Assembly: GCA_964187785.1 (NCBI GenBank)
Contig: OZ076415.1
Location: forward strand, 37,758,001-37,822,000
Source of the DNA: Amphiscolops sp. MND2022
Lineage: Eukaryota
DNA length: 64,000 nucleotides
Reading direction: 5' to 3'
In this document: positions 1,901-58,679 of the stretch, piece after piece
Layout: every line of letters begins with the position of its first letter
How positions within the stretch are numbered: the stretch's first letter is position 1
Program-made: the position numbers and the translations under genes
Notes under the pieces: model-generated
Database searches by the model: none
Told to the model about the DNA's origin: nothing
The model's input: only the letters and a program-made list of their open reading frames with translations

Positions 1901-1927
1901 TTATTTTAAGGCAATTGTTGATATTGG

Positions 1928-12170: not shown

Positions 12171-12350
12171 CCGAACTGTTCTACAACTACATAAATTTGA
12201 GGCTCAAGAATAACTAATGCACTATAAAAACGCTGAGAAGTTCGAAGAAAAGAAAGCTTCGATTCATCTTGTCCATTTTTCTAATTCGCGGTGTCTCAAA
12301 AAATGGCAAAAATTGCATAAAAATGTTTAAAAATGAGAAATTTGGGAATT

Positions 12351-12429
12351 TTTGTCATTTTCGGGGTCATTTTGTCATTAAGGGGTCATTTTGTCATTAA
12401 GGGGTCATTTTCGTCATTTTCGTCATTTT
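12351..12429. repeat. Short tandem array (GGGGTCATTTTGTCATTAA unit with GTCATTTT subunits)
   Basis: Directly visible: two 19-bp units plus partial and degenerate units. Confidence 0.85.
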
Positions 12430-22823: not shown

Positions 22824-24112
22824 TAGCGTTGGACAAAAATAATGAGAAAAATTAATTTTTTTTTGAAAAGAACATATCATCAGTTAGCGAAACCAAATCA
22901 AAATTTCCTTTGGTAAAATTTTTCAATATGTTATGGTTTAACTTGAGGCATGTTCAAATTTTGTTTAACCGCGCTAAATTCAGTATAAACTTCCGTTTTG
23001 TTGAGTTCATTTCAAAAATGAAAAACGTTAACTGTGTACTTGAATTGCTCTATCAAAATGGTTAAAAAAATCCGCGAGAATTATGTGAAAGAACAGGCCT
23101 TTCATTAGCTACCGTATATCGAAAAATTTGAAGAACTCGCAATGGAGAAAGCTTGGAAATAAGAAAAGGAAGAGGTCGCCCTCAGAAACTTTCTGCATCC
23201 CAAAAAAGGCAATTACGCAAATTGCTTTGAGAAATCCTCTTTTCTCAGACGCAGACATTAAAAATTGCTTCGAAAAATCCCACAGACATTCGGTGTCCTC
23301 CCGGACATACCATCGGACACTCTTGAGATCCGGAATATCAAAAAAATGCCAAAGAAAGTTCCGAATATTTCTCAACAGCAAAAGATCAAACGACTGGACT
23401 TCTGCAAGCAATTCAATTTTCCAGGATTCTTCGATAATGTTTTCTTAACAGACGAGTCTACCTTCCAGTTGCATCGAAATACCATCAAAGTTTGGTCATC
23501 AAAGAACAGCTCGTATCCTAAGAAAAAGGCCCCGAAATTCTCCCAAAAAATTATGGTCTTGGGTGCTCTGTCAAAAAAAGATTTTCCATACATATCTACC
23601 AAAATAATGCGAATGTTAACTCTGAATTGTACCAGGACACCCTTGCCTACTTCATATCTTATGCCAACAAGCTTTATCCAGACGGTTGGATTCTTGAACA
23701 GGACTGCGCGACCCACATACAGCAGCCAGCACTCGAGATTACCTGTCAGGGCATGGCATTCAACTTTTGCAGTCGCCACCGAATTTACCCGATCTTTGGA
23801 CTATTGAGAATGTGTGGCAGATATTCAAGCATGAGATTGAGAAAAAAATCCGAAAAATCTTGACGAACTTAGACAATATGCTTGGGATTGTCGCACATTT
23901 CTGGATTTAAAGACGAGGAAGAAATTGATAGATGCAACTTACGAAAGATTTTCGAAATGTGTCAAAAATGAAGGAAAACTAGTAAAATATTGACTATGTT
24001 TTTATGATACCAATTGTTTCTTCTTAAAGTTGACATAATATATATTTCTTCAATATATTCAGTTTCCGAATAAAATGTGTTTATTCTATTCTCATTATTT
24101 TTGTCCTAACTA
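22824..24112 (+). mobile_element. Tc1/mariner DNA transposon (DD34E type), ~1.29 kb
   Basis: TIRs TAGCGTTGGACAAAAATAATGAGAA (22824-22848) and TTCTCATTATTTTTGTCCTAACTA (24089-24112), each flanked by TA, enclose a transposase remnant. Confidence 0.9.
23018..23993 (+). pseudogene. Tc1-family transposase, frameshifted
   Basis: HTH-like region (SVSSRTYHRTL), VFLTDES (first D), KIMVLGALS, ILEQD (second D), PPNLPDLWTIENVW (E) and C-terminal KNEGKLVKY*. D-to-E spacing is 34 if one lost base after QDCAT is restored. Confidence 0.9.
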
Positions 24113-24186: not shown

Positions 24187-24405
24187 AGCCACCTTGATCA
24201 AAGCACTTAAAACGCATTAACTGGAATTTATTATTTCTTATTAAACAATGTAAACATTACCTATCATCATTATCCACCCATTCACAAATACTTTCGGAAA
24301 GTATTTGTGAATGGGTGGATAATGATGATAGGTAATGTTTACATTGTTTAATAAGAAATAATAAATTCCAGTTAATGCGTTTTAAGTGCTTTGATCAAGG
24401 TGGCT
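24187..24405. repeat. Perfect palindrome: 109-bp arms, 1-nt spacer (centre 24296)
   Basis: Base-by-base comparison shows that 24187-24295 is the exact reverse complement of 24297-24405. Confidence 0.98.
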
Positions 24406-27674: not shown

Positions 27675-28228
27675 ATCCCTAGTTAGAACTGCTTGAACTT
27701 TTTACATGTTTTTGTAGGTTACCAAGCTAATTTTCCATGATTTTATAAAATTCTCAAAGAAATGTCCATGCATTAAATCTCCATTGATTCAATTTAATTT
27801 TATCAAGCTGCCTATAAAATGCATCCTGAATTTGGCGGCAATTTTGCACCGCAAAGTTTTGCAGGTTTCATAAAGGCGCTGTTCTAATTTTGAAAGCAGC
27901 TGAGACCTTCATCAATTTTACCGCGCTTTCTATGCAAATAAACTTCAGTCACATTATAAGTTTCAAAGTAGCGTCATATTCAGCGTGGTATTTGGCTAAC
28001 GGTGATTACATAAGGTACTTACATGAGAAACTTACGCGTGAAAACAAAGTGATCGCTGCGGTGAAGAAGTAGAAATGTTTTCAGTTTTAATTCAAATAGT
28101 GGAAGCTGCATTGTAATCCTACAAAATGTTTCCATGCACGGTCCCAGAATTTTTCATGTTTTATAAAAAAATTAGCCTGCATGTTTCCATGCAGCATGTA
28201 AAAAGTTCAAGCAATCTCGACTAGGGAT
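27675..28228. mobile_element. MITE family B, complete copy with ~35-bp TIRs
   Basis: Left ATCCCTAGTTAGAACTGCTTGAACTTTTTACATG and right CATGTAAAAAGTTCAAGCAATCTCGACTAGGGAT are inverted repeats. The body is homologous to 48335-48847 and has no coding capacity. No clear TSD. Confidence 0.85.
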
Positions 28229-30339
28229 ACGGACTTTGATGCGATCTTAAAGTTCATGGAAAAGGAGATTTACAAGATATGATCATAATCTATTTTCATT
28301 CATTTTGATGCTCTATAACCCTAAATGGACCATGATACGATTTCGTACCACTTAGTTACTGCAAACTTCTACACGCACCAGCTGACCGTATGGTAGAGAA
28401 AACTCTTGAATAGGATTTTCAGACGATATTGCATAGCATTACACGCACCACACGCCAGCGGAGGCCTTCTCGCAAAAGACGTTGCCCCAGCCCAGCAGTT
28501 CAAAAATTGATTTGAGAGCCCTGATTCTCTTTTTTCGAACGCAATATAAATCGTTTGTCCGACTTGAGTAGTTCAGGAGATATTGCGGTTCAAAGTTTAA
28601 GCACCAGATTTTTGGATGGATCAGCAAATTTTCGCACGCATAGGGCTCACTCAATCCACGCATTACTAATCATTATCCATGCATGTGATCTTAGAGTTAA
28701 CATGGTCTATGCAGGGTGTGATTCCGGAAGAAAATGTTAGTTTCTTATAATAGAACCCAGGAAAATCCATTATACATTTTGTTTATATGTTTAATAGATA
28801 AACTTTTATGAAACATTCCGAAGAATGTTATTAAATTTTCCTATGTGATCAAAAAAGATTCCTACACAAATTACTAAGGTCAATATATTGCCACGAAAGT
28901 TGGCGTTAGAGCGCTTTGTAAAAAACGCTTAATTGAATAATTCTCGAATTTCCATAGAAACGGCTTTAACCATCATTACTTAGCCAATTAGCAAGCAGTG
29001 GGGTAAACGCAGAAACTTGAGTTACTTTATCGTTTATAGCTTACTGTATGTCATTAAAGGGTTCTTGTGACTCCATGATTTTATTTTTTCTCGTCTAAAA
29101 ATAGAGCGCCTACGAAAACGAATTTCAATGATTTCATGTATCTCGGAGTTTAGACATTTCAAGATGCCTAATCCGGATCTCATCAAATTTTGTATGTTAC
29201 GTTGAAAAAGGAAAAAAATGAAAGGTGAACCTTGAAACTAATTTAAATGCGTTTCTGAAGTCACGGGGCCCGAGTTGGACAGTCCAGTAGTTTAGTAGTT
29301 TCTGTAAAATGTGTCCTACACGCATAAATTCCGTTATCAGAAAAAAAACGAAAAGACTTGCCACTGTAACAAATGCGCTCAATTTCTGCTAAAAAATGAA
29401 GGGTATTTTCGAAGAACTTTGAAGACTGGCTCCACAATCGTGTTTGATCGAGCGTTTGATCGAGACGTTGAGAATGAAGTTTAAAGCTCATTTTTAATAC
29501 TACAACTCCTAATCCTGAAGTTCGTGTCTGTGAAAAAACCAAACAACAAAAAACCGTCTTTTGGAACCAAAAACTCGCAAATCTTGAAAGAGTTGGCTCC
29601 ACGAGCGATTGAACGTCAGAAGCAACTTCTCACGAGAACTTAACTTTCAGCATTGGACTTGAACTTGAAAGCGTACAGACCAAAAACGAAAAAATCAAAT
29701 TACAAAAATACACAGGATCAATTGATGAAAACAGGGTAGATCAGAAAAGCCAAGTTTCACGGTGATTTTCTGTGACTAGCTTCAGAACTTTTTCCTGTAG
29801 CAAAGTGCTGGTTGTTTTGTTGGTATCAGCAATCGCGTTTAAATCAAATAAGCTTAAACACTCTTAATCTTCCCGTGAGAACTTCGTTTTGTATCAAGTA
29901 TCATTCAACAGCAGCCTTTTTTAACCAACATAATTTTATTGGTCCCAATATTCAATCATAGAGTTGTCATCATGATGGTTTGCGGGTTAAGCTTGAAAGT
30001 TTTTCAAAGAAGCCTAGAGTCACTAGCTGAACTGAAAAGGAATTTAATTGGTTGTTGACAAAAAACACTTCTATTGGAAGGCATTCCATTTTAATTTCAA
30101 GAAACAAGGCGTTGTAGGAATCAGATTCTGGAGGTTTCTCTGTGTTGAATTGAAAAAAAATCACATTATGTTTCTTTCTTGCTGTTAGATCAAAAAGTTA
30201 AGCTCATCTTTGCCGTAGAGAAAATCCGAATGGAGTAAAAACCGCAATCGATATTTCAATGTGTCGATATCTTCGCACCGGAATAGTTAACACATTACGA
30301 AAAAGGAACTGACTGGGTTACAAACATGTTGAAAAGCCA

Positions 30340-35940: not shown

Positions 35941-37043
35941 TGTTGGCGCCTCGAAAAATATTGAAAAACAGAATTCTGAAACGATCCCTAAAACAGCTCC
36001 TAAATGATGGCTGTAATAGATTGGGTTTTGAGAATCACACTCTAGGATGGTCGGCAACCGACGTGTTTTTGGCCATCTTAATCATCTCTTGAACTTCATG
36101 TCAAAAAACTGAAGTTCGAAGTCAAAAATTTTGAAAAAACGTTTTTTCTGGGGCAAAAACAGACTTTCCATCTAACAGAGTACAATATTGGTACTTTATC
36201 GTTCTGCTTTCGTATATAACTTTTCAACAAGGCCATGTTTGGTTATATCGAATCCAGGCGGAAGACGATAGACTTTCTGTTGTTGATATGCAAATATCTT
36301 TATGTATTCTATCGCCCTAAAGTTGAGCAGTTTGTTAACTTGATAAATATAAAAGTCTTTCTGGTGACAGTATAATTTCTGGTGTGGATAGTATAGTTGT
36401 AAACATAGCAGTTTATTTTTTTCCTGGAGTATAAAACAACCCAAGATAACCTACTTTTGCGAGAGATACCCAAAAAATGAGATCGAAAACGGTGGGTAAA
36501 TATTATTCAAGCAATCAAGAAAGTAATGGTTAGGAGCTTTACTGTTTGGGTAACCAAGTTAACTTGGGCTGTTATTGAGCTGTATCGAAAGTATTCTTGT
36601 TTCTTCACAGGATTCGAGATTCCAACAAATATATATTCGATCTATGGGTAAGGTTATTCGATTTCAATTCGTAACACCCCAACTTCAAAGAAGATTCAAT
36701 GGTGTAGTGACTTTTATAATGAAACTCTTCAAGTCAGTAGGTTTTATGTTTTCTAACCAAGACCAAAAGTGGTCACAGATGCAGTAATTGCTTCACAGTG
36801 CCTATTATCACTGTAGGAAGTAGATATCTTCTATTCAAAGTTTCAAAGACCAAAAACCTGCTATTGTCCGATAGTCAAGGAAAGGCTCTCGCTATTGCCA
36901 ACTTCACCATTATATCACTGCCTGTAGCTAAAGTAGAACACGTCTACAGTATTATTCCCAAGAAAGATGTTTTTGATAACATTGTCCCATTCATAGGATG
37001 TAAAAACCTTTCTGCAGTAACGTCAGACAAAATTGGTTCAACA
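35941..37043 (+). repeat. BEL element 1, 5' LTR
   Basis: Collinear shared blocks with the 3' LTR (ATCCAGGCGGAAG, GTATAAAACAACCCAAG, TTCGAGATTCCAACAA, AACTCTTCAAGTCAGTAG, CCAAAAGTGGTCACAGA), roughly 75% identity with several private indels. Ends ...GGTTCAACA. Confidence 0.75.
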
Positions 37044-37071
37044 GATATCTGACGTTGCAAATCTATTGTTG

Positions 37072-37495
37072 AACAAGACGCCCGCTAAGCACCGGGATAT
37101 TTTCCTCCCTTTTCGCCTTTATCACTTGAGCCATAGGTATTTTGGGAGAAGAATAGGATCTAAATAATAAGATCCAAAATTTAGTGATTTTAGATCTTAT
37201 TTCCTTTAGATCTTGTTCCCGTCCTGAAATTTTAAATCCTATTCCCTTTAGATCTTAATCCCATTTTTACTTTAGACATTATTCCCATCTCAGTATGAAG
37301 GATGAAGGCTGAGCAGGAAGACTGAGTAAGTGGAGTTGAGTTGTACAAAGTGAAGTTTTAGCAGAAATTGGAAAAAAACGCAACACAGATGATGATTTTC
37401 CTCCTCCATTGAAAATGTGGGTCGGAAAATAAAGAAAACGCAATACAGATGATGATTTTCCCCCTCCACTGAAAATGTGGGTCGGAAAATAATAA
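37072..37495. repeat. Secondary insertion between BEL1 LTR and gag: hairpin terminus, TAGATCTT micro-array and 60-bp tandem duplication
   Basis: AACAAGACGCCCGCT...GGGATATTTTCC terminus as at 12134, repeated TTTAGATCTT at 37190-37280, and two 60-bp units at 37376-37492. Confidence 0.6.
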
Positions 37496-38051
37496 GGCCA
37501 AAAAGGTTCAAAGAAAACAATGTGGCCAAAACGACTGAGAGCAATTTGTGGGACCTCACATATATGATCTCATCAAAAAACGGGCAAGGACGAATTGTCT
37601 TTTTGACAGACTGTCTAAAAAACTCTTTAACAATGAAAATTTTAAGTGAACATGAAAAACGCTTCTCAGAATTGATTTTGATTCTGAAAAAAAATTAGAC
37701 TCGGACTTCCAGGTTTTACCTACTAAAGATCCAACCATTTGGGTAGACGTTAGTAAGTTCTTTTTAACAGATTGAACATCAAACAATAAGTTGCTCTAAG
37801 AGTTCGAAAAAAAGATGAAAGATACTTTCCAAGGTAGCCATTTGGCGATCCTGTTCAATTTGGAGTACGAACTTGAAGAACGTTTTCAGAACTAGAGCGA
37901 AACTTCCGGGGATGATCTCGTGAGCGTCAGTAGGCTTCCATAGGGCCCGTATGATGAAATCGACCTATGGAAATACGACGCTGAACTAATAAGAACCGCA
38001 GACAAAACGACAATAGATAAGCAAACTGAGCAAGGCGCGAGGTCGAGTACA

Positions 38052-41000
38052 GTGAAATTCGCTTTTCAAGAACTTCAAGACAACAAAGCGATTTTCGATG
38101 AAAGTCACGAAGGTAGACGCATTCTTCTCAAATCTGATTCCTCGACCACTATGCCAAAGGCTGAAAGCATCGTCACAGAAATGAATCTCATTATACAACA
38201 GGCCATGACTGACGCTTTGAATTTTCTTGATAGTTGCAATGGACCGCTAAAAGTTACACAGAAACACCAGAAGTTTCTGGTACGGAAAGTTCAGAGTTAG
38301 CAAAAGATGATGAAAACCGTTCTCAATCTTCAAAAAATTCAAATGCGAATGAAACGATTGATAAAGGATTGAAGTTGCCTTGATTGAAAGAAGCAAATCA
38401 GTCAGCGCTATTCCTTAAAATTGAAGGTCGGTTAGATAACCATCTTTGTCAACAACATTCGGCCACATCAGGTTGTCGCAAAATATTTTCTTCAGACGAC
38501 TACTCTTCCACCATCACATCAGCCTTGGCGAGCCAGCGAAAAAAGCGGGTTCGTTCGAAAGTAGGATCCAAAGTTTCGAAAATGAGTGAAGGAAGACAAT
38601 TGGATATACAAATTGAACTGATGGATCAAAACTCACAAATGGAAATAGAAGAAAGCGAGCGTGATTTAAAACTGGAGACTATACATCGAGAGATTGAGTT
38701 GGAACATTAACAGATCGAAATGGAGATAAAACTCCAAGAGTTGCAAGGGTAATTGGAAAATGCTGAAGTGAAGCGTAAGAACGCTTTCGAAAAGCAGTAA
38801 ATGCGATTGCAAATAGAATTGGATGAAGGATCGATTCATGCGTCTTCAATATGTCTAAGCCTCTTGTCGCTCACTCTGAAGGAGGGCAAAAAAGCGACAT
38901 CAGAAATTGGTTAGAACTAGGTGACAAAACGTTGACAAACGCTTTTCGCAGCCAATAGAATCTAGCAGGGAAGTACAAAATGTAGGCCGTCTCAGAAGTT
39001 CCAAATGCCTTACTATCAAAAAAGTCTACAACCGCGAAATCCAGGCAGAGGCTTTAGTAAGTCAACTCAAAGAGGGAAGCTGGTTTTTCTATGTCAAAAT
39101 CCAAGAAATTATTTCATCAAAAATAATCAAGACTCGAAGCCAAATTTCCCAGTTCTCCAAGCCTACATTCAAAAAATTTTCTTCCTTTACACCAGCAGTA
39201 CCAGTGCAGCAACGTGTGCATTTTGTTCAAACAAGTTTACTGAAGTTGAAATAATCTGAAATTCATGCATTGGAATGGCCAAGTTGGTCTAACGTGTTCA
39301 CAGACACCATTCATACCGCACGAATTGATGATACTGCAATAATGAGTCAATTGAAAATACTCGGTAAAGGCAGAGTCAAGGCGGCTATTGCCGGTCTCGG
39401 ATAATCCGGAGTCCTGTATAGTTCAGCATGAAAATATTAGGCTACAAACAATTGTCAAGCTCAGATGAAGCAATTCCATTTGAGTCTGTTCATCAAGTCG
39501 CATGACTAGGCGACTATTTTAACGTACACTCAGTTAATCACTACATTTGTTTTTGCTTAGAAACAGTTTGGTGTCACAGTAGACTTTTATTCAGAGTCCG
39601 TTTCGAATTCAGCTTTGAACTGACCTGAAGTTACCCCCTGAACTGAAAACCAACTGGATTTTCCTTGCTGAGAACAAGGATGCTACCAAGCTGATCTTTG
39701 TAAGGTCAGCGAATTGCTCAACGAAGTTGCTTATGTTCACTATGAGATGACAGTGCGATTCCGATAACCTTCAGAATAAAAGAACGCTTCAAAAAAGGTG
39801 AAGACGATCAAAAATTGTATCAAACGATCGAAAGAAAACACGTTCAGAACCCAAAAACAATGTCTATTGAAGGATGGCGATCACAAAAATTGGATGTGTA
39901 CTCAGTTTAAACAACAAAGATTTAATGAAAAACATGAAACCTTGCAGAAATGGAAACCTTGCTTTCGGTGCTCGAACTCACATTTGACGAAAAACTGTAA
40001 ATCAAACAGAAATTGTGCAGTGAATGGATGCCCCAAAAACCATAACAAGCGTTTGCATTCAGACTCTCCCAAAATTGAAAACGACAAAAAATCCGAAAAA
40101 TCTGTTTGTTCAATGCTTCCAACGGGAGGCAGTAGTTTCTTACAGTTGTTACTAAATTCATTTGGAAATGGGAATAGAATCGTTGAGACAATAGTTCTTT
40201 GTGATATTGCTTCCACTGTATCGTTTATGGACCAAACATTGGTTGACTATTTCAAATTGAAAAGGAAAGAATATGTAATTTCATTAGCTGGAATTTTTGA
40301 ACTGTTTGATTTGAAAATCAAAGATGTTACAGCCAGAATTCGTTCTACCGAAAAAGCAAAAACTGCGGGAGAGGATTTGACATTATGCAGTCATCCAAAC
40401 TTATCGAAAACAAGTCAGGTGATAGGAATGATTCTTGAGAAGGCAAAACCTCCTTGGGGTGGACAGTCAATGGAGCATTACGCAAAACAGTAACAAATTG
40501 AATGGCAGCTTCTAGGAACGTTTCTGTGCCATCTGGTCCTTTAGCCCATCAGATGAAAAAATGGTGGGCATGGAGACTCACTCCTCTGTATCTGCTGTCT
40601 CAGGACGATCTAAGGAAAAGAAAAGAGCTCAGACGATCCTGGAAAACACTACACGGAGTACCAACGAATGTTATGAAGTGGGATTTTTCTGGGCCGACGA
40701 AAGTCCGACTCTGCTGAATAACTATTATTGTACTCACCAGCAGTCTCTGTCAATCAATAAAAGATTAGGCGAGGATCGAGAGTTGAAAAAAGCCTACAAA
40801 GCTACCATTGAGAAGGGCTTGGAAAATCATTTTGTTCGAAAACTGGAACACTAAGTTGTAAGTACGGAGAAAGATATGCAAAGGTATTTTTTAATCATCA
40901 TGTCAAGCACCCACACAAGCGAGGCAAAACCAGAAGACTTTGTAATGCAGCTTCAAAGTTCAAAGGTGTTCGCTGAATGACAAACTTCTCAGCGGACCTG

Positions 41001-42740
41001 ATTTGTTGGGTAACTTAGTGTTTTCAGATTTAGAGAAAATCGAATAGCGAGAACCGCCGATATTGAGTCAAAGTTTTTGGGAAGTAGCGGTTTCCGAAGA
41101 CGAATGCAAGGTACTTCGTTTTCTCTGGCCAGAAGATCCTGGCGACTGTATTGAAATATTTTTTGAGTAGAACAGGCACGTGTCCGGAACAAAAAGTTGT
41201 CCGATCCGTGCGAAGCACGATGTCAATAAGGAGGAAGAGATCACAAAGTTGATTTTCCCTCAGCTGCATCGACCATAGATAGAAATTTCTACATGGACAA
41301 TTTGGTGAAATGGGTTCGTAGTCTGCAGGCAGCTCTTACATGTTACCACGCCTTGGTAGAAAATCTCCAACTTAGTGCATATACATTGAAGAAATTAGCT
41401 AGCAATTGTCCGGAAGTTTCACAAACAATCCCTGTAGAAGATCGATTAGAAGCGAACAACATCACTCTTAACGCAAAATCATCTCCAATTCTAAGTCTGC
41501 ATTGGATAACCGATAAAGAGTGTCTGCAAGTATGTCGAGGACCTAGCAAACAATGTCCGCAAAACAGCACTCATTGAGTAGTTATATCTCTTGTTTCCTC
41601 AGTTTTTTATCCATGGAAGAGTTCACTATGCAATGAGAATGCTTTTGAAATTATTTGAAAATTATTTGGAAATTATTTGAGAGACTTGCATCATCAACAT
41701 AACCATGAAGGTGTAAAGTTTGTCAGAACTCCTGTACAACAAAACTTTTGGATACTACGTTTACTCAACGAGAGAAGTATTTCAAACACGTGTGTCTTTT
41801 GTCGAAAGTTACGCGGTTGAGTAAACGCTCCAATTTTGGCTGGTTTCGATTATCAGTCATCTCCATTTACAAACGTGGGAGTAGAATTTTTCGATACCTT
41901 TTGATGATAAAACAATACGAAGTACAATGGAACGCTGGTGTTGCCTTTTTCACTTGTTTAACAGCTCCAGCAGTCCACATGGACATGGCTAGAAGCTTTG
42001 ACACAGATTCTTGCTTAACAGTTATTAAAGAGTTTTTTCACGTCGTGGCAATCCAGCAACTGTCAATTGCGACAATGGGACAATTTTCTTAGGCTTAGCG
42101 AGAGAATGGGAAGAATACAATAACTCAAGGATTAAGAGCTCAAAATATACCAGAGCTAGCCAAAGACAAGTCGTGTGGAAACGTAAACAACCAGCGGCGC
42201 CTCATGTCTGAGGGGTATGTTATCGGTTAGTAAAGAGTTGCAAGAAGACAATGAAAGCCTTTTTTGTTAATCGAGCACTAACTGTAGGATCATTGACTAC
42301 AACAATGTAATTGGTTGAACAAACTTTGATTGCTCGACCAATTACGCCAGCAAGTGATGATCCTAATGACAAGGAAGCACTTACGCCCAATCAATTTATT
42401 CTAGGTCGATTAAACATTTGTATCCCCCTTTTCCTGAATGCCGAGTTCTATGCTAACCATCGAAAGATGTTTCCATCTTGACAAGCCTATGCAGACTTAA
42501 TTTGGAAAAGATGGGTTTAAGAATATCTACCACAGCACAATATAAGGTCTCAATGGAACAAATCGAACGCAAACGTTGAGATAGGAGACATGTATGGTTG
42601 ATAGAAGACAATGTGGAAGATCCCATCACAAGATGGCAGGAGTTCTTCGGACCACCCTGAAAAAATTGCGTTGTGAGATGAGTTCTCAATAAAACACATG
42701 AGAGTACACTGAAACGACCTGTGATAAAATTGCCGCCAGT
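38052..42740 (+). pseudogene. pol: BEL element 1 gag-pol remnant
   Basis: Coiled-coil N-terminus. Zn knuckles C..KDGDHK.W.C / CFRCSNSH.TK.C / CAVNGCPKNHN..LH and a protease-like LCDIAST in ORF 39798-40493. Degenerate RT blocks at ~40900-41600. Integrase HH..CC and CLTAPAVHMDMARSFDTDSC. Confidence 0.88.
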
Positions 42741-42782
42741 TTTGAACAGCGTTTTCATGCTGGAAACGGGGCCTGGCTGCAT

Positions 42783-43710
42783 TGTTGACGCCTCGAAAAA
42801 AGATTTGGGGCAAAGCCAACCTTTTCATCTTTTAGGGTACTTTAGCTTGGTACTTTTTTGTTCTGCTTTTGTATTTACCAGTTTATGAAGCCCATGTTTG
42901 TTTATATTTAATCCAGGCGGAAGTCGATGGAAACTTCGCGTGCAATGAGCAAAAATAATCAAGAACAACAAAATTATGTAAAGTTATGCTTCGGATGTTG
43001 ATATACAAATATCCTATTCTACATCTTGATATACAAGTATCTATTCTATCACCCTAAAGTTTAGCAGTTTGTTATACTTCAAAGTTCTTTCTGGTGCCAG
43101 TATATTTGTATGTAGACATAACAGTTTATGTAGTTTCCTGTAGTATAAAACAACCCAAGTTAACCCCTTTTTGGGAGAAAGACACAACAAGTGAGATGGA
43201 AACGGTTGATATACCTTATTCAAGCGCCCAAGAAATTATTGTTAGGAACTTTATTGTTTGTGTAATCAAATTAACTTGCGCTTTATAGAGCTTTTTCGAA
43301 GTTTTTGATGTTTCTTTACTGTCTTCGAGATTCCAACAATATTATACCAATATTGCATTTTTGTCGATTTTTCGCTTGAAATGGTTTTGATTCAGAAGGC
43401 TTCCGATATTTGAGTAAACTTTTTCATTTTCGATTTGGTACAGCCAAACTCCGTAAACGATTCAACGGTTCAGTGAGTTTTATGAGGAAACTCTTCAAGT
43501 CAGTAGTTTTTATGTTTTTAGACAAGTCCAAAAGTGGTCACAGAGAGATGCAGTACTTGTTTCACCGACCTCGGAAACTTTTTTAAAGTCACACTAGCTA
43601 TTATCAAGATTGAAACTAGATGCTATATCATCTATTCAAAGTTTCAAAACCAAAAACTTTTCATAGGAGGTAACAACCTTAATGCTGTAATGACCCAGTT
43701 TTGGGCAGGT
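42783..43710 (+). repeat. BEL element 1, 3' LTR
   Basis: Starts TGTTGACGCC directly after the integrase end and a G-rich PPT-like stretch (GGAAACGGGGCC). The 3' end is degenerate. Confidence 0.8.
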
Positions 43711-46703: not shown

Positions 46704-47802
46704 TAAGTCAATTCAATCTTTTACCCTGTGACATGCATTTGATCACCAAATCACAAATACATACTTATATAAAAAGACCAGAAAGACTCTGCATCGTTGA
46801 TGATTATCAACTTTTCAAACTTTTTTTTCGAAGTGTCTCCGTATTCAATGCATCGATGTCTCGAAAAAGTGTGCCTTTTTAGTTGATTCTCCGGGGGTGA
46901 GAACTCGAAGAGCTACTAAGCTCCTTTTTCATCCTTATTGGATATTTTATATATAAAGTGATTAATTACTTGATATGTTTTGCTTTTAATATCCAATGAA
47001 ATTAAACTTTCAACTTTCAACTTTCAATTGTCAGAAAATGCGAATACAAAAAAGTATCAGAAATTATCCAAAAAAAGTGTTCGGAAAGTTAAATTGTTTT
47101 TGATTTATCGACATACAAGTCAGGCGAGGAATACCGGGTATCACAACAGGCCCTGTTGCCCTGTCTTCACTGTGAAACGACACATGAACGACAATGGAAA
47201 TTTTTTTTCAAATCTTTCTTCCCGTTTTTTGGGCGTTTTTGTAAAATGCGTAGACACTTTTTGTGACTTTTTGAAGACCATTCAAACTGAAGTCTTTGAA
47301 TAGGTTCATCATTTTGAGAATAAACTCGTTATTTTTTTTTCAAAATTCAACAAAATGTTTCATCAGAAAAAAAGACTCAAAGTGCCGAAAAACGAGCTTT
47401 AAGTTCGCCAAACGCTTTTTGCTGGCGGAAAACATTCATTGTGAAGAGGTACATTTTGATTAATTGAACACTCTATCGCACAGTGCCGGAAAAAGCCGTA
47501 GGTCGTTTCCACAATCATTGCGATACTTCATCAGTTCCACGGGATCAGAAAAGAATCAAAGAGGTCACTCTGAGGACTCGGAAAAATTATCTTTACAGAA
47601 ATCTCAGAAAACCAATTATTGCGGATACGTTTTCGACAACAATTCACAAATTGTTGAATTTTTAAAAGTTCGTCGGTAAGTCGCATAGTACCGAAAAAAC
47701 CTAAAGTTGCATTCTTTGCCTGGAATACTATGCCTTTATTTCTGCTAAAAATTAAGGAAGGGGGTATCGGTTTGAAAAATTCGGTAAAAAGTCGCATAAA
47801 TT

Positions 47803-48300
47803 AGGAATAAGCCGGGAATGGCCTAAGTTGGCGCCATATCTAAGGCTCAAAAATAGCAAAAGGACTTCAAAGTGTCAAGTATTCTCTTTTACAGTACCCG
47901 CACGAGGAAAGTTTTTTCTGAATTTTTTTCGAAATTTTTTTGAAGTCTCCAGGAAGTCGCATAGTGCCAAAAATTGTAAGAGGGGGGCCCTTGGGATTTT
48001 TGGAACATCCATTCTTTTGCAAAACAGAAAAAAAATGAAGGGGGACCCTTTGGGGACAATAAAAAATTTTGCGAAAAAAGTCGCACTAAGTCGAACTGAT
48101 ATATGCACAGAAAAATTTTGGTCAAGCGCGAGACTCGAACCCACGTCCTTCTGCATGGCAGACCTCAAAAACTCTAATAAAGCTCTATACCAAGTGGCAG
48201 TAGAAGTTACATTAGTGTGGTCGTTAGTGGAATCCAGCTTATAAAGCTTATAAAATCTGTCACTTCGTTGATCCTAGAAAAGTCATTACTATAGTCTGCG
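47803..48300 (-). mobile_element. Repeat family A, copy 3 (variant carrying a tRNA-like segment)
   Basis: AAGTTGGCGCCATATCTAAGGCTCAAAAA, AAGTCGCATAGTGCC and GGGGACCCTTTGGG units are homologous to copies 1 and 2. The distal part diverges into a tRNA-like sequence. Confidence 0.75.
48111..48200 (-). other. tRNA-derived (SINE-head-like) sequence, not a functional tRNA
   Basis: The minus strand carries a T-arm GTGGG-TTCGAGT-CTCGC (48144-48128) with a B-box (GGTTCGAGTC), an upstream hairpin TCTGC-CAT-GCAGA and a downstream T-run. No acceptor stem is recoverable. Confidence 0.45.
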
Positions 48301-48334: not shown

Positions 48335-48847
48335 TATAACTACTTGTAGAAATCTGATCGTGTTTATAACATTCTCAAGGAAACTACCATGCACTAACAC
48401 TTCACTGATTCAATTTAATTTTATCAAGCTGCCCATAAGATGCATCCTAAATTTGGCGGCAATTCTGAGCCGCGATGGGTTGCAGGTTTCATTAGAAAGA
48501 CATTCTAATTTTCAAGCAGCGGCGACCTCAATAACTTTACCGCGATTTCTATGCAAGGAAACTTCGTTCACCTTTTAAGTTTCAAAGTAGCGTCATAATC
48601 AGCGTGCTCTTTGACTAGCGGTGATTGCATAAAGTACCTACTTGAGATACTTACTCGTGAAAACAAAGTGATCGCGGCGGTGAAGAGGTGGACTTTTTTT
48701 CAGTTTCAATTGAAATAGTGGAAGCAGCATTGTAGTCCTACAAAATGTTTCCATGTATGATGCCTGGATTTTTCAGGTTTTGTAAAATTCTAGCCTGCCT
48801 TTTGTCATGCAGCATGTAAAAAGTTCAAGCAATCACGACTATGGTTA
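48335..48847. mobile_element. MITE family B, copy 2 (left TIR missing)
   Basis: Collinear, roughly 80% similar to 27700-28228, and includes the right TIR CATGTAAAAAGTTCAAGCAATCACGACTA. Confidence 0.85.
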
Positions 48848-49408
48848 CCCTGCATGCAGGCCTACAGCATGTTTTTTCCATCGAAGTCAATCATAATTAA
48901 CCCAGGTCCGTGGCGTTGTTTTTTATTGAAATAGACGAACGGAACGTCGAAAAAACCGAACCGTTGGAAAAGTGACGAAAATTCAGAAAAAATACTTTTG
49001 AGACGCACGTTTCCTGATACATCTTGGTCTATGAAACTCCTTCATTCTTTCAGAAACAATCTTTAGGAAACATTATACACTTTTGTCATAGTTCACTTTA
49101 ATCTTCTCTTGTTTTTGAGACGCAATACCAAGTTCCAAGATTTTCCACACAACTTTATTCTAGGCTACTAAACCAAAAATTATACTGCTTATTGGCTCAT
49201 TTTTTGTAGCAACTGATGACCGAAAAGGTCATTTGAGAACATAACTGAAAAGTTCCCAAAAGGACTATTTAGGTGATAAAAAGGACTATTCTAGCTCCTC
49301 AAGTTTTACTGGTCGTATTGGCATCATGTGCTTGTTTTACGATACACGGTTTTGTCCGAGCAGTTTGAGGATTGCGAAAGAGCGAAATACTCGGAAGTTT
49401 GTTTTTCT

Positions 49409-49672
49409 TGTTCGCAACTTTCAAAATTTGAATCATTCTTAACTTTCAAAATATGATTCAATATGACAAAACGTAAAGAGACGTGTCTTGTGTCTTCAAT
49501 TCCATTGACAAACGCTCTTATCTTCATTATTCTGCTGTTTCAACACATGAACAACTCAAATTATTGATTCTTTTTTGGTAACTATGATTTTTCTCCTGAA
49601 TGGGCAGTATGATCCGCTGAAATGAAGAAAGCAAGCGTCCGTGATTGTTACAACTGAGCATCGGCGAGACCA
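49409..49672 (+). repeat. BEL element 2, 5' LTR
   Basis: TGTTCGCAACTTTC...CATCGGCGAGACCA; ~26 substitutions and no indels versus the 3' LTR (manual count). Confidence 0.95.
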
Positions 49673-50041
49673 TTTTTTGATGCGCCGACCTACTTTGACA
49701 CTTAAAGGCTACAGTCACAAGATTTTTACCCGTCTTCAAAAACCTGATATTTCGTTCCAATAAAAACCTATTGACATACTGAAAGAGGGATTTTGAAATT
49801 CGAATTTATGATATCATAGGTTTGAACGATAGTGAAACTTCACAACTTTAATACGATAGGTTATTCCAGATGTAGATATTTTGCGGAATTAATTATAAAA
49901 CAGAGCTGAATTGCAAAATTATTTTGTGAAACTTGTTCAAGTAAAGTTGGCAATGTATCATTGATCAAATATCCAATATCCTTGTCCCAATGTGCATTTT
50001 GAAAGGTTTCTGAATGTCTGCACCAAGACAGTCACATTATC

Positions 50042-50699
50042 ATGTCTACAGAACATCATCCACGCTAACCCTTTTGATTGCCGACTCACAGGCAAGCAAT
50101 TTGGAAGCAGGGAACTTGAAATACTTTCTCTGCCTGGTGCTTGTGTCCAGCAGGTCTATAATTTTATTCACCTCTTAAAGATTTTTTTGATATCATCATT
50201 CATTTGTCGGGGAAACGACTTGAGTTTTTTCAAAAAACCAACTACGACACCTGCAAGTCAAGTGGCTCACGAGATTATAGATTTTGCAAATCTCTTGTGC
50301 CACCATGCCAAAGTAGTTTACGTTCTTGGGATACCTGAACGAAACGAAAGTAAAATACGTTCGAAGCAAGTAAACGATTTCTGGCAATCAGTAGGTGAGC
50401 GCAAGACCAAATACCAGCAACTTGGTACTTGGAGGTAACGAACTGTGGTCCGACATATCACCGGGGCCCGTTATTTGTATCCCAACGACGCCACACACCT
50501 AAACGAAGACGGTCTCAATAACCTTAGAAATCTTTTTGAAGAAAAAATCCTTTACAAAAACTACGAAAAGGAGCTGATTAAGCGTGGCAATGACGAGTTC
50601 TTTGAATGTGAAGTGAGTGCCAGTGTCCATGCAATGACTGGTGAATGTCTACACCACAACCTTTGTATGATAGAAATTTCAACTTTTGCCTTCACTTAA
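50042..50699 (+). pseudogene. SGNH/GDSL-type hydrolase (esterase) gene, frameshifted
   Basis: Block I LLIADSQ (Ser codon 50086-50088), block II SLPGA (Pro 50133), block III GNDL (50211-50222) and block V DATHLNEDG (50487-50513) occur in canonical order and spacing. There is one frameshift between blocks I and II and one in-frame TAA (50436-50438); the 50042 ATG needs a further frameshift. Confidence 0.8.
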
Positions 50700-50982
50700 A
50701 GGTTGCCTTGATGTTCCGTTTAAGGAATTCAAAGTTGAAGAAATTTTGCCTTTTTGTGTGTCTGAGTAGCTAAAAGTTACCTTGAGATTCCACCAGCTGT
50801 CTCAAATCACTTTCACAGTAGCTCTGCGCATCAAAACTACTTCAAAAAAGGCATCTCAAATACTGCTTGTGAAGTCTGATTACTTCATCAGCCTTTTCAC
50901 TGTCGAATTTTGTTTCCTGGAGGGCTTTTAGCTATAAAAGTCACTGTCTTAGTCCCCCTCTACAAGTTGATCATCTTCGATC

Positions 50983-53900
50983 ATGATGGATCCTATTCAT
51001 CTATCTAATCCTTTACCAGCTGACGAAAAACTACTATCACGAGTTAGGGGTGCGCACAAGGTTGCCTTTAAAAAGCTCGAAAAGAAACTCACTTCCTAAC
51101 CACGGTGATTGCAACGCCAAATCAACTGGTTGAAGCCGAAGCACTTCTGAAGACGCTTTAAGACAAGATCCAAGTCATCCATCGGTATGACGCTGAGATA
51201 GAACTACTTCTCGATGATAATGATCAACTGTCTCAAGACATGGAGCTTTCGACACAGTTCCATCACAACGCAAGTGTGACTGTTGCACGTTTGTCAGCAC
51301 TGATTGACAATTATAAATGGGCATCAGAAGCCACGGGTACTCTCCACGTACATCTATAAACGATGGGAGCCAGAATTCAAGCAAACTAAAACTCCTGAAA
51401 CTTCAATTTCTATCCTTTACGGGTTCTTATACGGACTGGATGGGCTTTGCCGATCTCTTCAGAGCATCTGTCGACTCCAACAACCCATTATCGAACTCTG
51501 AGAAGCTGAACTATTTGAAAGCTTGTGTCAAAGGAGAAACAACCAAGCTGATTAGCTCAGTTACGATCACTGATTAAAACTACGGAATCGCTTGGGAACT
51601 TCTGCACAAACGCTATGAAAACAAAAAAAGAGCATTGTACAATCCCATTCACAGACAATTTGGACTCAAGGCTCACTGAAGTGTGAATCCTCAACCGGTT
51701 TGAGGAAACTAATTGAAACAACAAACGAGAACCTCAGAGTCTTGACAGAGCTGGGACAACCAGTGGAGTACTGGGATGCAACTCTCGTTCATTCTCTGTC
51801 TGAGAAGATGGATCCGGAATCACGCAAGCAGTCGCAGCTGGGCCATCCCGGAACAGACCTCCTCACATGGAAACCGCTTTCCATGGATAAGCGAATCCAC
51901 TCATACTCAGTATCCAGCCCATCGTGCGAAAATTGCAGAATCACAAGTTGAATTGTTGTCCTCAGTTCAAAGCCATGCCAGGTGCCAATCGAAATCAATT
52001 CGTCAAAGAAAAAAGACTCTGTTTTAATTGTCATTATCCTGATCACTCTTCGAAAGATTGCCAGTCAAAGTTCTCTAGCCGCGAGTGTAAGATGACGCAC
52101 CACACGCTGCTCCATCGAACTCAAAGGCCTTCCAATCTACCTCAAGTCGGTGACAACGGGAGAAACACTCTTCAAGCTAGCGGTAGTTCGGCGCCTCACA
52201 AACACTGGAACTCTAAGTTCACAACAGGGCATTTGAACACTGATAATCAGAACATTACAGTACTACTCTCCACTGTAGTTGTCTCTATACGAAATAGGAG
52301 TGGCAAGCCAATCAGAGTGCGAGCACTCTTGGATTCCGGGTCCCAAGCCAGTTTTATCACTGCAAACATGGCGAAGGCCCGAATGCTTTCGACAAGAAGT
52401 AATCAAGCTACGATTACGACACTTGTTCCAACACAGACCCAAAAGACTTATGGAATCTTGTCGACCACAATCAATGATGCGGTAGGTGTTACTTTGCATC
52501 TGATCTCAAAAATTACCAATGTGATACCTTCTCGGGAGACTGATATCTCACAAATGAGACACATCAACCATCTGATTCTAGCAGACCGAGATCGAGCATT
52601 AACATTCCAAGCAAAGTAGATGTACTTCTAGGAGTCGATGTTGTTGAAGAAATCCTCCTAGAGAACAAAATCAAAGACAATGGACTCTATCTAAAAGACT
52701 CCACTCTTGGCTGGGTTGCATCCGGTCCAGTCGCGACCTCGCATGCAAACTCCATCACAACACATCTGGTAATTTCTTCTGAAGCAGACAGAGACCAGTT
52801 GTTGTCAAAAGTTTGGGAACTAGAAAGCTTCCCCGAGTAAAAACACTTGACTGCTGAAGATCGCAAGTGTGAAAAGCATTACAAAGCCACTACTCCACGA
52901 AATACCGAGTGAAGATTTGTGGTCCAAATGCCAATCAAGGAGGAATCACAAAGGCTTGGCTACAGCAAAGCAAATGCAATGAAGCGATTTCTTCGCTTGG
53001 AGCAGACACAGCATCGAGATGAGTCTCTCCTCAAGAAATACGGAGATTTCATTCAAGAATTTCGCGACCTTGGTCATCTCGAAAAAATTGAAAACCTAGA
53101 GTTGGATGTTTCCTAAACTATTACCTCCCACATCATTGTGTGCTGATGGAAGACAGCTCGACGACAAAATTGCGTGTTGTTTTTGACGCGAGCTCGAAAA
53201 CAACCACAGGCGTCCCTCTGAACGAATGTCTACTTGTCGGTCCGAAGGTTCAAGAAGACCTCCTCGATATTTTGGTCAGGTTTCGATTCTTCAAAGTTGC
53301 CATGTCAGCCGACATTGCAAAGCTGTATCGGCAAATGGAACTCTGCAAAAAGGATAAAGTCTATCATCGTATATTTTGGCGCTTCGACAGGCAGCAACCA
53401 ATCGATACCTACAGAGTGACACGCGTAACCTACGGTGTCGCAAGCAGTTCCTACCACGCTCGTTAAGTGCGCAAATCTTGAAAGAGTTTCGCCTGAAGCT
53501 CAAACCTCAAAAAACTTCTATATTGATGGCAAGTTCACTGGAGCCAGTTCTGTTGAAGAAGCCAAAAAATTACAGAATGATTTGATTCAGGCACTGAAGC
53601 AGGCTAAATTTGACTTTCGAAAATGGACATATAGTGAAGCCTAACTCGTTCTTTCTCTACCCCCGAGTATGGAGAAGCCAACGACAACTTAGAATTTCCC
53701 GAAAATGACCACACCATAAAAACACTGGGGATCGTTTGGAACCCTATTCAAGATGTTTTCCTCTTCAAAGTTGCTCATGTTGAAGAAGACACACAAGAAT
53801 AATGTCACAAAGCGACAACTGCTGAGTGACATTTCAAAGTTTTTGATCCGCTCGGTTGGCTTTCTCCTGTAAAAATCCAGCCGACCCTGCATCACGGGGC

Positions 53901-55670
53901 ATTGATACAGATGCAATCCAGGAACATTGTTGTGGAATGGGCCTGACTGGTTTATCACCGGAAATTCGCTGAACACTTTTTTCCCGACGAAGGTCTCGAA
54001 GGACAGAAAAACTCAACGATAATATTCTTTCACGCTTCCGCTGCTCTCGATCAAGATGCTCTCAATTTGTCAAAATACAATTCCTTTTACAAAGCTTTAC
54101 GAGTTCTTGCGAACATTAAACGTTTTGAATCGAAACTGAAGAAAGAGTTGAAAGACTTCCCTCGATACATGACAGCCACCGAACTTGCCGACTCGACGAT
54201 GATATTACTGCGGCAGGAACAACGCAAGGCATACAGTGAAGAAATCAAGACTCTGAAAATAGACCTGCATGTAAAAAAGGAAAGTAAAATCTTGAAACTT
54301 TATCCTTTCTCCGACGATGGCGTACTTTGTGTTGGCGGAAGATTAGCCCACGCTAACCTTCCTCTGACGAAAGCAAGTATCAGCGTTTGATTCTGCAAAG
54401 TAGTCATCTAACCAGACTGGTTGCGTCAAACGCTCATCTGTCGACAGTTCATGGAGGAACAACACAAGTGATGGCACACATCCGCACTCGTTTTTGGATC
54501 CCAAGCTGCCGTTCACTTCTATGAAAGTTAGTTCGGAATTGCGTCGGCTGCAATCGATTCAATATCAAGCCCTCTCAATGGGAGATCTACCTAAAGAACG
54601 TGTCGATGTCTCAACAAAGGCTTTCGAAAGTGTAGTAAATGTCTTTGCAGGCCCTTTCCTATGTCGAAAATTGGCACGGAATGTTCTCAAGTCATATATG
54701 GCACAGTTTGGCTGTTTTGAAAGTAAAGCAGTGCATATCGAGGCAGTGTCCGACAAGACAACACCAGCATGCTCCGCAGCCTTGAGAAGATTCGTTGCCA
54801 GAAGAGGGTGCCCGAAGTAATTTACAGCGACAAGCGAAGCAACTTTAATGGAACCCGAGCAGAGATCTCACAATTGCAAAAAATCTTGAAAGCAGTACAT
54901 AAAGATTCCTTACAAACCGTTGCAGCTGGCCTCCTATTCAATTGGAACTTCATGCATCTAAGAGCTCCGCATTTTGGAGGTCTGTGGGAGTCCGCAATCA
55001 AGCGATCAAAGCAACTTCTACGAAAAGTGATGGGCAACAAGGTACTTTCGTTCGAAAAACTAACCACACTCTTTTGCCAAATTGAGTTAATTCTGAACTC
55101 ACGCCCACTTTGCCCGCTACTAGAATCGACTGCAACGTAATAGCATTTGTTAGTGGATTACGCTGCACGCTTTCCAAAACTGCCGTCCAGCGAAATCCGC
55201 TGCAAAAATTCAAAATACCCACTTTTGGCACTGTAATGTATCTAAAGATCCCAATGATGACACAATTTTGACTCCTGCCCACTGTGTCTTGGTGGACGCT
55301 TGCATCCCTGCAGCTCAAGGAGAGTGATGGTGTTCTCAGATCCGAAACAATCGATGACGCCAGTGACGCAACGCCAGTAAAAATGGGCTCATTTGCAAAA
55401 TCTAATCAACCACTTCTGCAAAAAGTGGACAAAAGAGTACGTGACGACCCTCCAGGAACGCAATAAATGGAAACAAGAGACTTCCAGCCTAAAAGTGGGT
55501 GATGTCGTCTACGTGACTGACGATAACACACCTCGTCTTCAGTGGCCTGTAGCAAGGGTATTCTACGTCTACAGTGGCCATGACGAAGTTTGTTCGAGTG
55601 GTGAAGATCAACACCGCCAACGAGACATACAACAGATCAGTCCACAAACTGCGAGAACTCTTTGACGTCC
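50983..55670 (+). pseudogene. pol: BEL element 2 gag-pol remnant
   Basis: KLQFLSFTGSYTDWMGFADLF...EKLNYLK (gag); LCFNC..PDH.SKDC...C...HHTLLH; VRALLDSGSQASFIT (protease); LRVVFDASSK...LNECLLVGP...ADIAKLYRQ (RT); FAGPF...AVHIEAVSD...GGLWES (integrase); KWTKEYVTTLQERNKW (C-terminus). Confidence 0.95.
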
Positions 55671-55760
55671 CGCAAAAGGATAATCACTAAAAAAACTTTC
55701 ATCAACAAATTTGTAATTTTGATTTATCTTTGTTTCAAATGTTTCTCTTAATTTCCCCTA

Positions 55761-55780
55761 GGAAATCAAGGCGGGCAGTA
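55761..55780 (+). other. Polypurine-tract-like sequence of BEL element 2
   Basis: GGAAATCAAGGCGGGCAGTA directly before the 3' LTR. Confidence 0.6.
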
Positions 55781-56044
55781 TGTTCGCAACTTTCAAAATA
55801 TGACTCATTCTTAACTTTCAAAATATGATTCAAAATGTCAGAACGTATTGTGACGTGTTTTATGTCTTCAATCCCATTGACAAATGCTCTTATTTTCATT
55901 ATTCTGCTATTTCAACACATGAATGACTCAAATCAATGATTCTCTTTTTGTAACTATGGTTTTTCTCCGGAATGGGCAGGATGGTCCGCTGAAATGAAGA
56001 AATCAAGAGTCCGTGATTGTTACAACTGAGCATCGGCGAGACCA
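55781..56044 (+). repeat. BEL element 2, 3' LTR
   Basis: Same 264-bp sequence and termini as 49409-49672. Confidence 0.95.
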
Positions 56045-57173: not shown

Positions 57174-58679
57174 CTGCACGTGGCAGAAACATGAATGAAC
57201 ATGAGGGAAACATAGTTTGTCGCCAATTTGTCGATTTTCTCCCACACTGATTTGGTCCGTACGTGAACAAATGTAGTAAAATGTTAAGTAGCAAAAAACA
57301 TTGAAGCATTAATTTTTATGAAGTGTGTGTTGATGACACGAATTGGTCTGTAGATGAGGAAAACATCATACCAAACTATAGATACTTTAATCATTGAACA
57401 TGTGGTAATGTCGACACCGTTTTAAACTCCAGAAACAGCGAATGGAAGGAAGAAGATTTTTGTGTCCAACAGGGTACCTAAAACTAATCAGTTCCACTTA
57501 ATTTTTATTGACAACACAAAAATGGTGATAAATTGGTAATAGCAATTACATCAATATATTCACGTCAGAAATATTGAATAAAGTCAAACGATCGTACGGA
57601 GAAAATTCATATCAAACGACAACTATATCAAGCGACAACTCATATAAAACAACAATTAATATAAATCGAAACTCATATCACAAAATTAAATCCTATATAA
57701 AAAAGTTTTAAAATTTCATTCCAAATATTTAAATGAAATAATTAGAGAAATTCAGTTGATTTATAAGCAATTATTAGAATATAGTAACAGAATTTTATCG
57801 TACTTATTAGTGCCATTGAATATCATACCTTCCTCCAAAGGGTCGCATAAAATAATTTTCTATGGAGAATTTTAAAAAAACACGAGTGTGCAGAAAAAAT
57901 AACACACACAATATTCTGTGTTACTGAATCTTCAACGTATTTCAAATAGTCAAATAAGGAGGGTATGAAAACAACTATTCAACCGCTTAAAAGCAGAGCC
58001 TTCGTGAATTAAAAAAGCATTATTGCTGCAAAACCGGTTAGTATTTTTGAAAAATGGATTACTTAACAAAAGATTTATACTTCAGAAGGCTGCATGGTTC
58101 TGGAAAAGGGAATCTTTCAAACCACATTCTGCAACTACAACGACAGGCATGCCTCTTTTTCTGCGAACACCTAGACTGTGAGACTTTTCAATGCAGCTTG
58201 AAAACCAGCCATTATCTCAGCCAATGTTAGAACGACAAGTATCCTCCAATTTCGTTGATTTTTTCGAATTAGAAAATGTTTGATTTTGTCGAACGCTTTC
58301 GCTTGAAAACCGACCAGTCAACGAAATAACTACTCTTCATGTAAATTAGTCCCTGGTTCAAAAAACCTCCACGGAAGAACAATAGGTTTCCATCAACTTA
58401 AAAAGTTAATACTAACTTTATGTTTTCATCAACTTTAATATTAACATATGTTTCCATCAACTTGCACTTCAACCAATGTAGTTAAAAAGTAACAACATTG
58501 CTTGAAGTGCAAAACGGTTATAACCTCGAAAACTCGAATTTATTTTATTCTTCCAAAGAGAAACTTTGATAATGAAATGGATAAAAGTACTTATAATGAG
58601 CCGCCCAAAAGTGCGAAACGGAAAGAGACGAATAAGAAAAGACTACAGCGTTGCTATTTTGCTCTCAACAGTAACAATT

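Follow-up and report, generated by a model that had tools for sequence, protein, structure and literature searches.

An SGNH hydrolase gene as probable accessory cargo of BEL/Pao retrotransposons in Amphiscolops sp. MND2022

Results

A BEL/Pao element with an SGNH gene between its 5' terminal repeat and gag

Analysis of a 64,000-nucleotide stretch of the genome of Amphiscolops sp. MND2022 (assembly GCA_964187785.1, contig OZ076415.1, positions 37,758,001 to 37,822,000 of the forward strand; hereafter the window) revealed a decayed BEL/Pao retrotransposon on the plus strand (element 1, 49409-56044), the leader of which holds a broken gene for an SGNH hydrolase, and a second, older BEL element (element 2, 35941 to ~43690), which was found when an intact SGNH protein matched positions 36819-37010. 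The features of both elements are listed in Table 1.

Judged from its sequence, element 1 belongs to BEL/Pao, in agreement with the initial annotation of this locus. Pfam searches detected the marker domains DUF1759 (E 2e-10) and DUF5641 (E 8e-22) and an aspartic protease, and Gag is followed by protease, reverse transcriptase, RNase H and integrase (PR-RT-RH-IN) in this order and with BEL-type domains. The two long terminal repeats (LTRs), of a size within the 0.2-1.2 kb of BEL/Pao, have TG...CA ends and are identical at 238 of 264 positions (90%) with zero indels, and a polypurine tract is present. The gag-pol region is colinear with P0032, a 1755-aa Gag-Pol relative with PF05380, except that ~180 codons of the RNase H region are gone near 53880. 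No env or other open reading frame (ORF) was found between pol and the 3' LTR. The flanks TTTCT and CTTAT match at 3 of 5 bases, at an LTR divergence of 10% and with target site duplications (TSDs) of 5 nt in BEL/Pao. Regarding the primer binding site (PBS), which in BEL/Pao pairs with tRNA-Arg or tRNA-Gly according to the ICTV profile (PMC8742986), a candidate is present behind the 5' LTR, and no tRNA gene for such pairing was detected in the 64-kb window.

The SGNH gene has its catalytic positions in the order and at the place first annotated (Ser 50086, Gly 50136, Asn 50214, Asp 50487, His 50496), while its extent, initially given as 50042-50699, is in fact 50014-50644, with the TGA at 50642-50644 as terminal stop. 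The single internal stop that had been proposed was found at 50436; the one frameshift proposed alongside it turned out to be four, near 50120, 50170, 50201 and 50614. A profile built from 67 natural homologues scored 144.7 bits at this locus and at best 7.8 bits on the reversed window, so that the locus is not a chance match. The window's own gene pieces gave zero SGNH matches in Pfam and the assignment rests on intact natural copies, of which P0020 is identical to the window protein at 168 of 206 residues. The suggestion that the gene is as decayed as gag-pol was borne out, both by identity to family proteins (684 of 802 residues for gag-pol; Fisher p 0.20) and by lesion load (5 in 631 nt for the SGNH gene, 10-11 in 2360 nt for gag-pol; p 0.34).

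At least two other copies (P0240, P0255) have the SGNH frame open over 45-60 codons ahead of its start (region 49879-50013), and several other SGNH families share a similar stretch just 5' of the start; this stretch may represent either an N-terminal extension or a conserved signal in the leader. The leader also contains a TATAAA at 49894, which may occur by chance, and an Rfam scan gave nothing approaching its cut-off. Weak tblastn matches at 14033-14311 and 58101-58208 were unsupported by the SGNH profile.

Association of the gene with the element

A homologue search returned 15 proteins, including that of the window itself, and 15 of the 17 members of the main cluster were listed. Of the 28 records of the SGNH family of element 1 (family 1) other than the window's own, eight have unbroken 211-aa ORFs, and there is one read-through record. 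Linkage to gag-pol was assessed by comparing the sizes of the source contigs of SGNH and Gag-Pol records. The Gag-Pol cluster of the same family is 83% identical to the window, and its listed members (15 of 30) represent 13 distinct contig sizes; seven of these equal sizes found among the 28 family-1 SGNH contigs listed, while none is shared with 200 contig sizes from other SGNH families, 144 of them of at least 14 kb (Fisher p ~1e-6). Two contigs common to both sets are as short as 36 and 45 kb. Within the family the two genes have similar mean divergences (4.0% for SGNH, 3.5% for Gag-Pol), and the window DNA from 49832 to 50818, ending 160 bases before gag, is shared by other copies (read-through records P0022, P0172, P0208).

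No polyA was found around the SGNH gene. A 24-nt inverted repeat around the ORF (49675-49698/50813-50836) is equalled by 15 of 200 shuffles; it was considered as transposon or Helentron ends or as a leader stem and rejected, being at chance level and unformed in the predicted fold. A 10-nt direct repeat, CACTTAAAGG (49699, 50693), was likewise discarded as a TSD since 362 of 500 shuffles match it. The linkage, like divergence, shared flanking DNA, lack of polyA and chance-level repeats together lead us to reject a one-off insertion. Of the findings that had been named as grounds for abandoning the initial proposal, none was obtained: a fold match exists (see below), other copies carry the gene, and neither polyA nor a TSD beyond chance is present. 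The profile scan of the whole window gave two SGNH loci, both in BEL elements, and none in a Gypsy-type element at 910-5885.

A distant BEL element with the gene in its terminal repeats

Element 2 contains the N-terminal half of an SGNH gene inside its 5' terminal repeat, identical to P0180 at 55 of 84 residues and cut by a 425-nt repeat insertion (37072-37496), beyond which four further codons follow. Its 3' terminal repeat, which lies right after a polypurine tract behind the integrase, ends with SGNH remnants (43598-43690) that include the block III motif FIGGNNL, and the two repeats are ~81% identical over the aligned bases. The simplest reading of this arrangement would be a long LTR that contains the SGNH gene; as neither LTR end survives, the arrangement may also be a tandem copy with a shorter LTR in common. 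In keeping with an LTR position, two other SGNH clusters, P0317 (three pairs) and P0322 (one pair, one triplet), contain near-identical sequences from the same contig that are mutually closest, and the clade of element 2 has a further two same-contig pairs; none was found in family 1, P0323 and P0190.

The Gag-Pol proteins of elements 1 and 2 are ~22-30% identical in the longer blocks, and their SGNH families are 40-43% identical, which only suggests that the SGNH module may have been exchanged between BEL lineages, since both window copies are decayed. The DNA upstream of the two window SGNH copies has no similarity, 98 of 200 shuffles attaining the score. Capture by one BEL lineage, as initially envisaged, does not accommodate a large family with the gene in both terminal repeats of a distant BEL element.

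Three side observations concern element 2. A long near-open frame at the start of its interior (37540-38300) was taken as the Gag N-terminus and has no match to the proteins compared. The frame also contains a PBS-like TGGCGATCCTG at ~37842, which may be a chance occurrence or the true PBS. The insertion that interrupts the SGNH gene has an internal palindrome and a tandem pair of 60 nt, and it belongs to a short repeat family with ends AACAAGACGCCCGCT...GGAAAATAATAA, another copy of which lies at 12134-12616.

Fold, active site and properties of the intact protein

The model of P0020, a natural intact copy, has a pLDDT of 92.3 and a pTM of 0.90, with the domain beginning at residue 10, and contains the three-layer alpha/beta/alpha SGNH fold. 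Its top Foldseek matches are SGNH hydrolases only, namely PAF-acetylhydrolases (best E 1.8e-6) and sialate esterases, with the esterase of the zebrafish long interspersed nuclear element (LINE) ZfL2-1 lower (4c1b; E 2.2e-4, ~20% identity). Structural alignment with a sialic-acid esterase gave a Z of 16.5 at an rmsd of 2.3 across 159 residues, and with the OSK domain of Oskar a Z of 13.1. The SGNH fold of the cargo protein can be considered settled at the level of the predicted structure, and the protein is a predicted SGNH hydrolase and esterase in which both the Ser-Asp-His triad and the oxyanion hole are intact. In Pfam, intact copies match Lipase_GDSL_2 (PF13472) with E 1e-4, at a score under the curated cut-off (23.2 bits for P0001, cut-off 32.9). 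PF13472 was detected at E<0.01 in 20 of 39 homologues (best 1.5e-8), and some homologues have a precomputed PF13472 label.

A PDB sequence search with P0002 returned nothing, profile searches gave weak GDSL rows amid chance rows, and neither ZfL2-1 nor Oskar was reached via PDB sequence searches. A viral fold library yielded generic GDSL proteins only, the best a giant-virus GDSL protein of 18% identity, and no donor. An atlas comparison gave GDSL-like eukaryotic clusters at 0.92-0.94 with 146-163 features in common, which serve as leads only.

The isoelectric point is 8.6-10.1 in all 18 proteins checked (~9.4 for the cargo protein). None of the 18 has a transmembrane helix, the top 19-residue hydropathy values (0.81-1.62) all falling on core strands or helices, and no signal-like segment was found in the SGNH protein, which therefore cannot be a fusogen or env product. 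The cargo protein thus appears to be soluble, basic and single-domain, without a membrane anchor. Family-specific conserved residues include His10, Cys199, Cys204 and Cys206 (58-60 of 67 homologues); this His near the start and the three Cys near the end perhaps form a zinc site.

The wider SGNH family

A full scan for the SGNH family gave 189 matches and a profile search 192 clusters, the best 120 of which comprise 558 sequences, with at least nine members in 17 of these clusters. All homologues listed are ENA or Logan records, and no rotifer sequence is among the scan or profile matches. Nearly all are stand-alone proteins of ~190-220 residues with their own start and stop and without a coiled-coil leader. 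In an alignment of 187 full-length homologues, 148 end in frame, spanning about 30-100% identity, and 125 of these 148 keep Ser, Gly, Asn, Asp and His together; the comparison shows the catalytic residues, at the level of the aligned proteins, to be under long-term constraint. A tree of 92 esterases, built in quick mode, served for grouping only.

The nearest SGNH relatives in what appear to be other data sets (P0318, P0325, P0328) lie on contigs of 0.8-1.6 kb, and sister Gag-Pol records on contigs of 5.5-7.5 kb, a pattern that might arise from a distinct short transcript or from LTRs that were assembled on their own. P0397 has an N-terminal extension joined to the SGNH ORF that we take to resemble a fragment of a non-LTR reverse transcriptase, and this extension is probably an insertion.

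Features of the two elements and other repeats in the window

Table 1. Coordinates of the features of the two BEL elements, numbered from the first base of the window.
Feature	Position	Strand	Remarks
5' LTR, element 1	49409..49672	+	264 nt, TG...CA
PBS-like stretch TGATGCGCCGACC (13-mer), element 1	49678..49690	+	5 nt past 5' LTR; read from sequence
AT-rich leader preceding SGNH gene, element 1	49691..50013	+	49832-50013 part found in other copies too
Broken SGNH hydrolase gene, element 1	50014..50644	+	211 codons in intact copies
Spacer, SGNH stop to gag, element 1	50645..50979	+	50645-50818 part found in other copies (read-through records)
Decayed gag-pol, element 1	50980..55690	+	Gag DUF1759, zinc knuckles, protease, reverse transcriptase, integrase, DUF5641
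Polypurine tract, element 1	55768..55780	+	Read from sequence
3' LTR, element 1	55781..56044	+	264 nt
5' terminal repeat, element 2	35941..37512	+	Right end and PBS lost
SGNH homologue, N-terminal half, inside 5' repeat of element 2	36819..37508	+	Coding 36819-37077, first 86 codons
Heavily decayed gag-pol, element 2	37540..42741	+	Start approximate; BEL/Pao
3' terminal repeat, element 2	42783..43690	+	Right after polypurine tract behind integrase

Besides these elements, the window contains the Gypsy-type LTR element mentioned above, assigned by integrase-like ORFs, with LTRs of ~193 nt, a matching TTGCC TSD and its first ORF directly after the PBS, without an SGNH gene. A Tc1/mariner-like transposase fragment, recognised by eye, and an inverted repeat of 109 nt, with perfectly matching arms 1 nt apart, are present at 23262-23807 and 24187-24405. 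Two further interspersed repeat families occupy 7832-8707, 20982-21481 and 47657-48079, and 27675-28230, 48363-48848 and 9160-9565, respectively; one of the two has GGGGGACCC-rich internal repeats and one has terminal inverted repeats.

Discussion

Taken together, the data make it very probable that BEL/Pao families of the host lineage carry the SGNH gene as a native accessory gene under selection; the initial view of it as native cargo is in line with the intact copies, the co-occurrence with Gag-Pol of the same family and the like divergence of the two genes. Regarding its function, we tentatively favour a cytosolic acyl-esterase that acts at membrane surfaces and aids particle trafficking, because the weakly active ZfL2-1 esterase uses its surface charge to bind liposomes and acidic lipids (PMC3905857), with which the basic charge of the BEL proteins fits. 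The gene is a stand-alone sense ORF, presumably the first at the 5' end of the element RNA; it lies in the leader in family 1 and inside the terminal repeat in element 2, as it probably does in some further families. Its predicted product, a soluble and basic cytosolic serine esterase, would bind negatively charged membranes through its surface charge in the manner of the ZfL2-1 LINE esterase and may remove an acyl chain from a membrane lipid, which could help capsids to assemble on, travel with, cross or leave through membranes without an envelope protein. Translation of gag behind the SGNH gene may involve splicing, a second promoter or reinitiation. A membrane role was earlier raised for rotifer elements (PMC5408684).

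Several points weigh against this proposal. The handle for linkage is the equal size of contigs, not DNA; six of the 13 Gag-Pol contigs have no SGNH partner among the members listed (15 of 30 for Gag-Pol, 15 of 17 for SGNH), and the divergence of the seven linked SGNH and Gag-Pol pairs is uncorrelated (rho -0.11, n=7, with little power). The sister Gag-Pol clusters P0032, P0033, P0035, P0036 and P0038 (40-50% identity) share no contig size with any SGNH record listed, so that close relatives may lack the gene and yet be mobile. As for the active site, 59 of 67 homologues have Phe in place of the LINE-specific His that lies four residues ahead of the block III Asn, and the lipid-binding mode of ZfL2-1 need not carry over for this reason; His is not among the four commonest residues at this position. 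Finally, the closest folds mix carbohydrate and sialic-acid esterases with lipid esterases, so that the fold does not fix the substrate.

The same linkage and conservation would be expected of native, selected cargo that counters host defence or has a non-lipid ester as its substrate, for instance by de-acylating a protein or glycan, or by an SGNH fold that reaches germ-plasm or piRNA granules like the OSK domain of Oskar; we regard this as possible but rather unlikely. The sialate O-acetylesterases and carbohydrate esterases among the top structural matches, the similarity to OSK and the conserved His and Cys residues with their possible zinc site are consistent with such a role. To our knowledge, such a zinc site is not known from lipid esterases. 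A cytosolic protein without signal peptide, however, would be unlikely to meet cell-surface glycans, the OSK domain is reported to have no catalytic role, in contrast to the BEL proteins with their preserved triad, and the ZfL2-1 esterase, the sole transposon esterase tested, bound lipids and had no peptide deacetylase activity (PMC3905857).

A bolder extension of the favoured esterase model, which we consider unlikely, would make the gene a module that is exchangeable among distant BEL/Pao lineages, in the leader or the LTR, and that provides an envelope-independent membrane factor for particles leaving the cell or reaching the germ line. If true, it would be an enzymatic counterpart of env and of the sORF2 of Drosophila elements.

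It is quite improbable that the ORF is instead a separate selfish unit that uses BEL elements as vehicles for its own benefit, whether of Helitron or terminal-inverted-repeat type or as a cassette that moves from LTR to LTR. Its two different sites in two distant BEL lineages would suit such a unit, as would the Helitrons that move SGNH genes in fish (PMC4021074), the absence of a linked record from the listed members of the sister clusters, and the fact that carrier context is established for few of the 189 homologues; but no termini of its own were found, the surrounding repeats being at chance level, polyA is lacking, no transposase or helicase lies close by, the DNA upstream of the two window copies is dissimilar, and the family-1 SGNH and Gag-Pol genes spread together. 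A one-off nested LINE ORF1 fragment or a pseudogene captured from the host, of no use to the element, for which the broken window copy and the frequency of SGNH domains in L2, CR1 and RTEX ORF1 (PMC3905857) might speak, is largely refuted and very improbable given intact multi-copy ORFs linked to Gag-Pol, proteins that stand alone between a start and a stop codon of their own and lack a coiled-coil leader, the absence of the LINE-specific His and catalytic residues kept over deep splits.

SGNH esterases recur as cargo of unrelated mobile elements and a single one has been assayed. The BEL families offer a natural experiment, with dozens of young families, intact single-domain soluble enzymes, two layouts and close relatives that possibly lack the gene, and make the substrate, the selection and the idea of an env substitute directly testable. 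For annotation, they are a caution that coding sequence may lie in the leaders and long LTRs of BEL elements.

Comparison with known systems

The elements described here share with BEL/Pao (Belpaoviridae, PMC8742986) the LTR size, the polypurine tract, a gag-pol of PR-RT-RH-IN order and BEL-specific Pfam domains. The ICTV profile has gag, pol and env only, in keeping with the initial remark that an SGNH gene is not standard in BEL/Pao, whereas the present elements have an enzyme gene before gag or in the terminal repeat and no env. No report of an SGNH or GDSL gene in BEL/Pao was found in the literature covered, with Repbase, Dfam, GyDB, subscription journals and supplements lying outside that coverage; in the portions available, PMC3118150 and PMC2774666 do not contain the words 'esterase' or 'hydrolase', and PMC6431247 and PMC7599744 mention other elements only and no BEL/Pao SGNH gene.

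SGNH genes have been described in LINE ORF1 and in Penelope elements (PMC3905857). The ORF1p esterases of ZfL2-1, CR1 and RTEX (PMC3905857, 4c1b) resemble the BEL proteins in SGNH fold, triad, basic surface and 5' gene position; the latter are without the N-terminal coiled coil and the transposon-specific His (H191 in ZfL2-1), have an extra His/Cys motif, and come beside a true Gag rather than instead of it, followed by BEL gag and not by an endonuclease-reverse transcriptase ORF2. On the likely strand of the Ser228 partner residue of the LINE esterases, read without residue-level alignment to 4c1b, Leu, Ile and Gly predominate in the BEL proteins. ORF3 of the bdelloid rotifer Vesta elements (PMC5408684) is likewise a stand-alone SGNH ORF of an LTR retrotransposon with intact catalytic residues, without transmembrane segment or coiled coil, and common to unrelated element families, but lies downstream of pol in non-BEL elements, whereas the SGNH gene here lies upstream of gag or in the repeat of BEL/Pao elements. 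By the features compared, the BEL SGNH gene is of neither LINE ORF1 nor Vesta ORF3 type. In the Drosophila MDG1 group (PMC11952523), LTR elements that likewise have no env, the sense-oriented accessory sORF1 and sORF2 also precede gag; sORF2, which is tied to cell-to-cell transfer, encodes a small transmembrane fusogen-like protein, in contrast to the unrelated, soluble enzyme predicted here. The 'Hydro' ORF of Ngaro elements (10.1101/2021.08.05.455354) and the Helitron-borne texim genes of fish (PMC4021074) similarly provide an SGNH hydrolase as an extra gene of unproven function, but their carriers are tyrosine-recombinase or rolling-circle elements with gene positions other than the BEL leader or LTR. 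SGNH cargo was already known from other mobile elements, and what appears to be new, by the literature covered, is its presence in BEL/Pao and the position of the gene.

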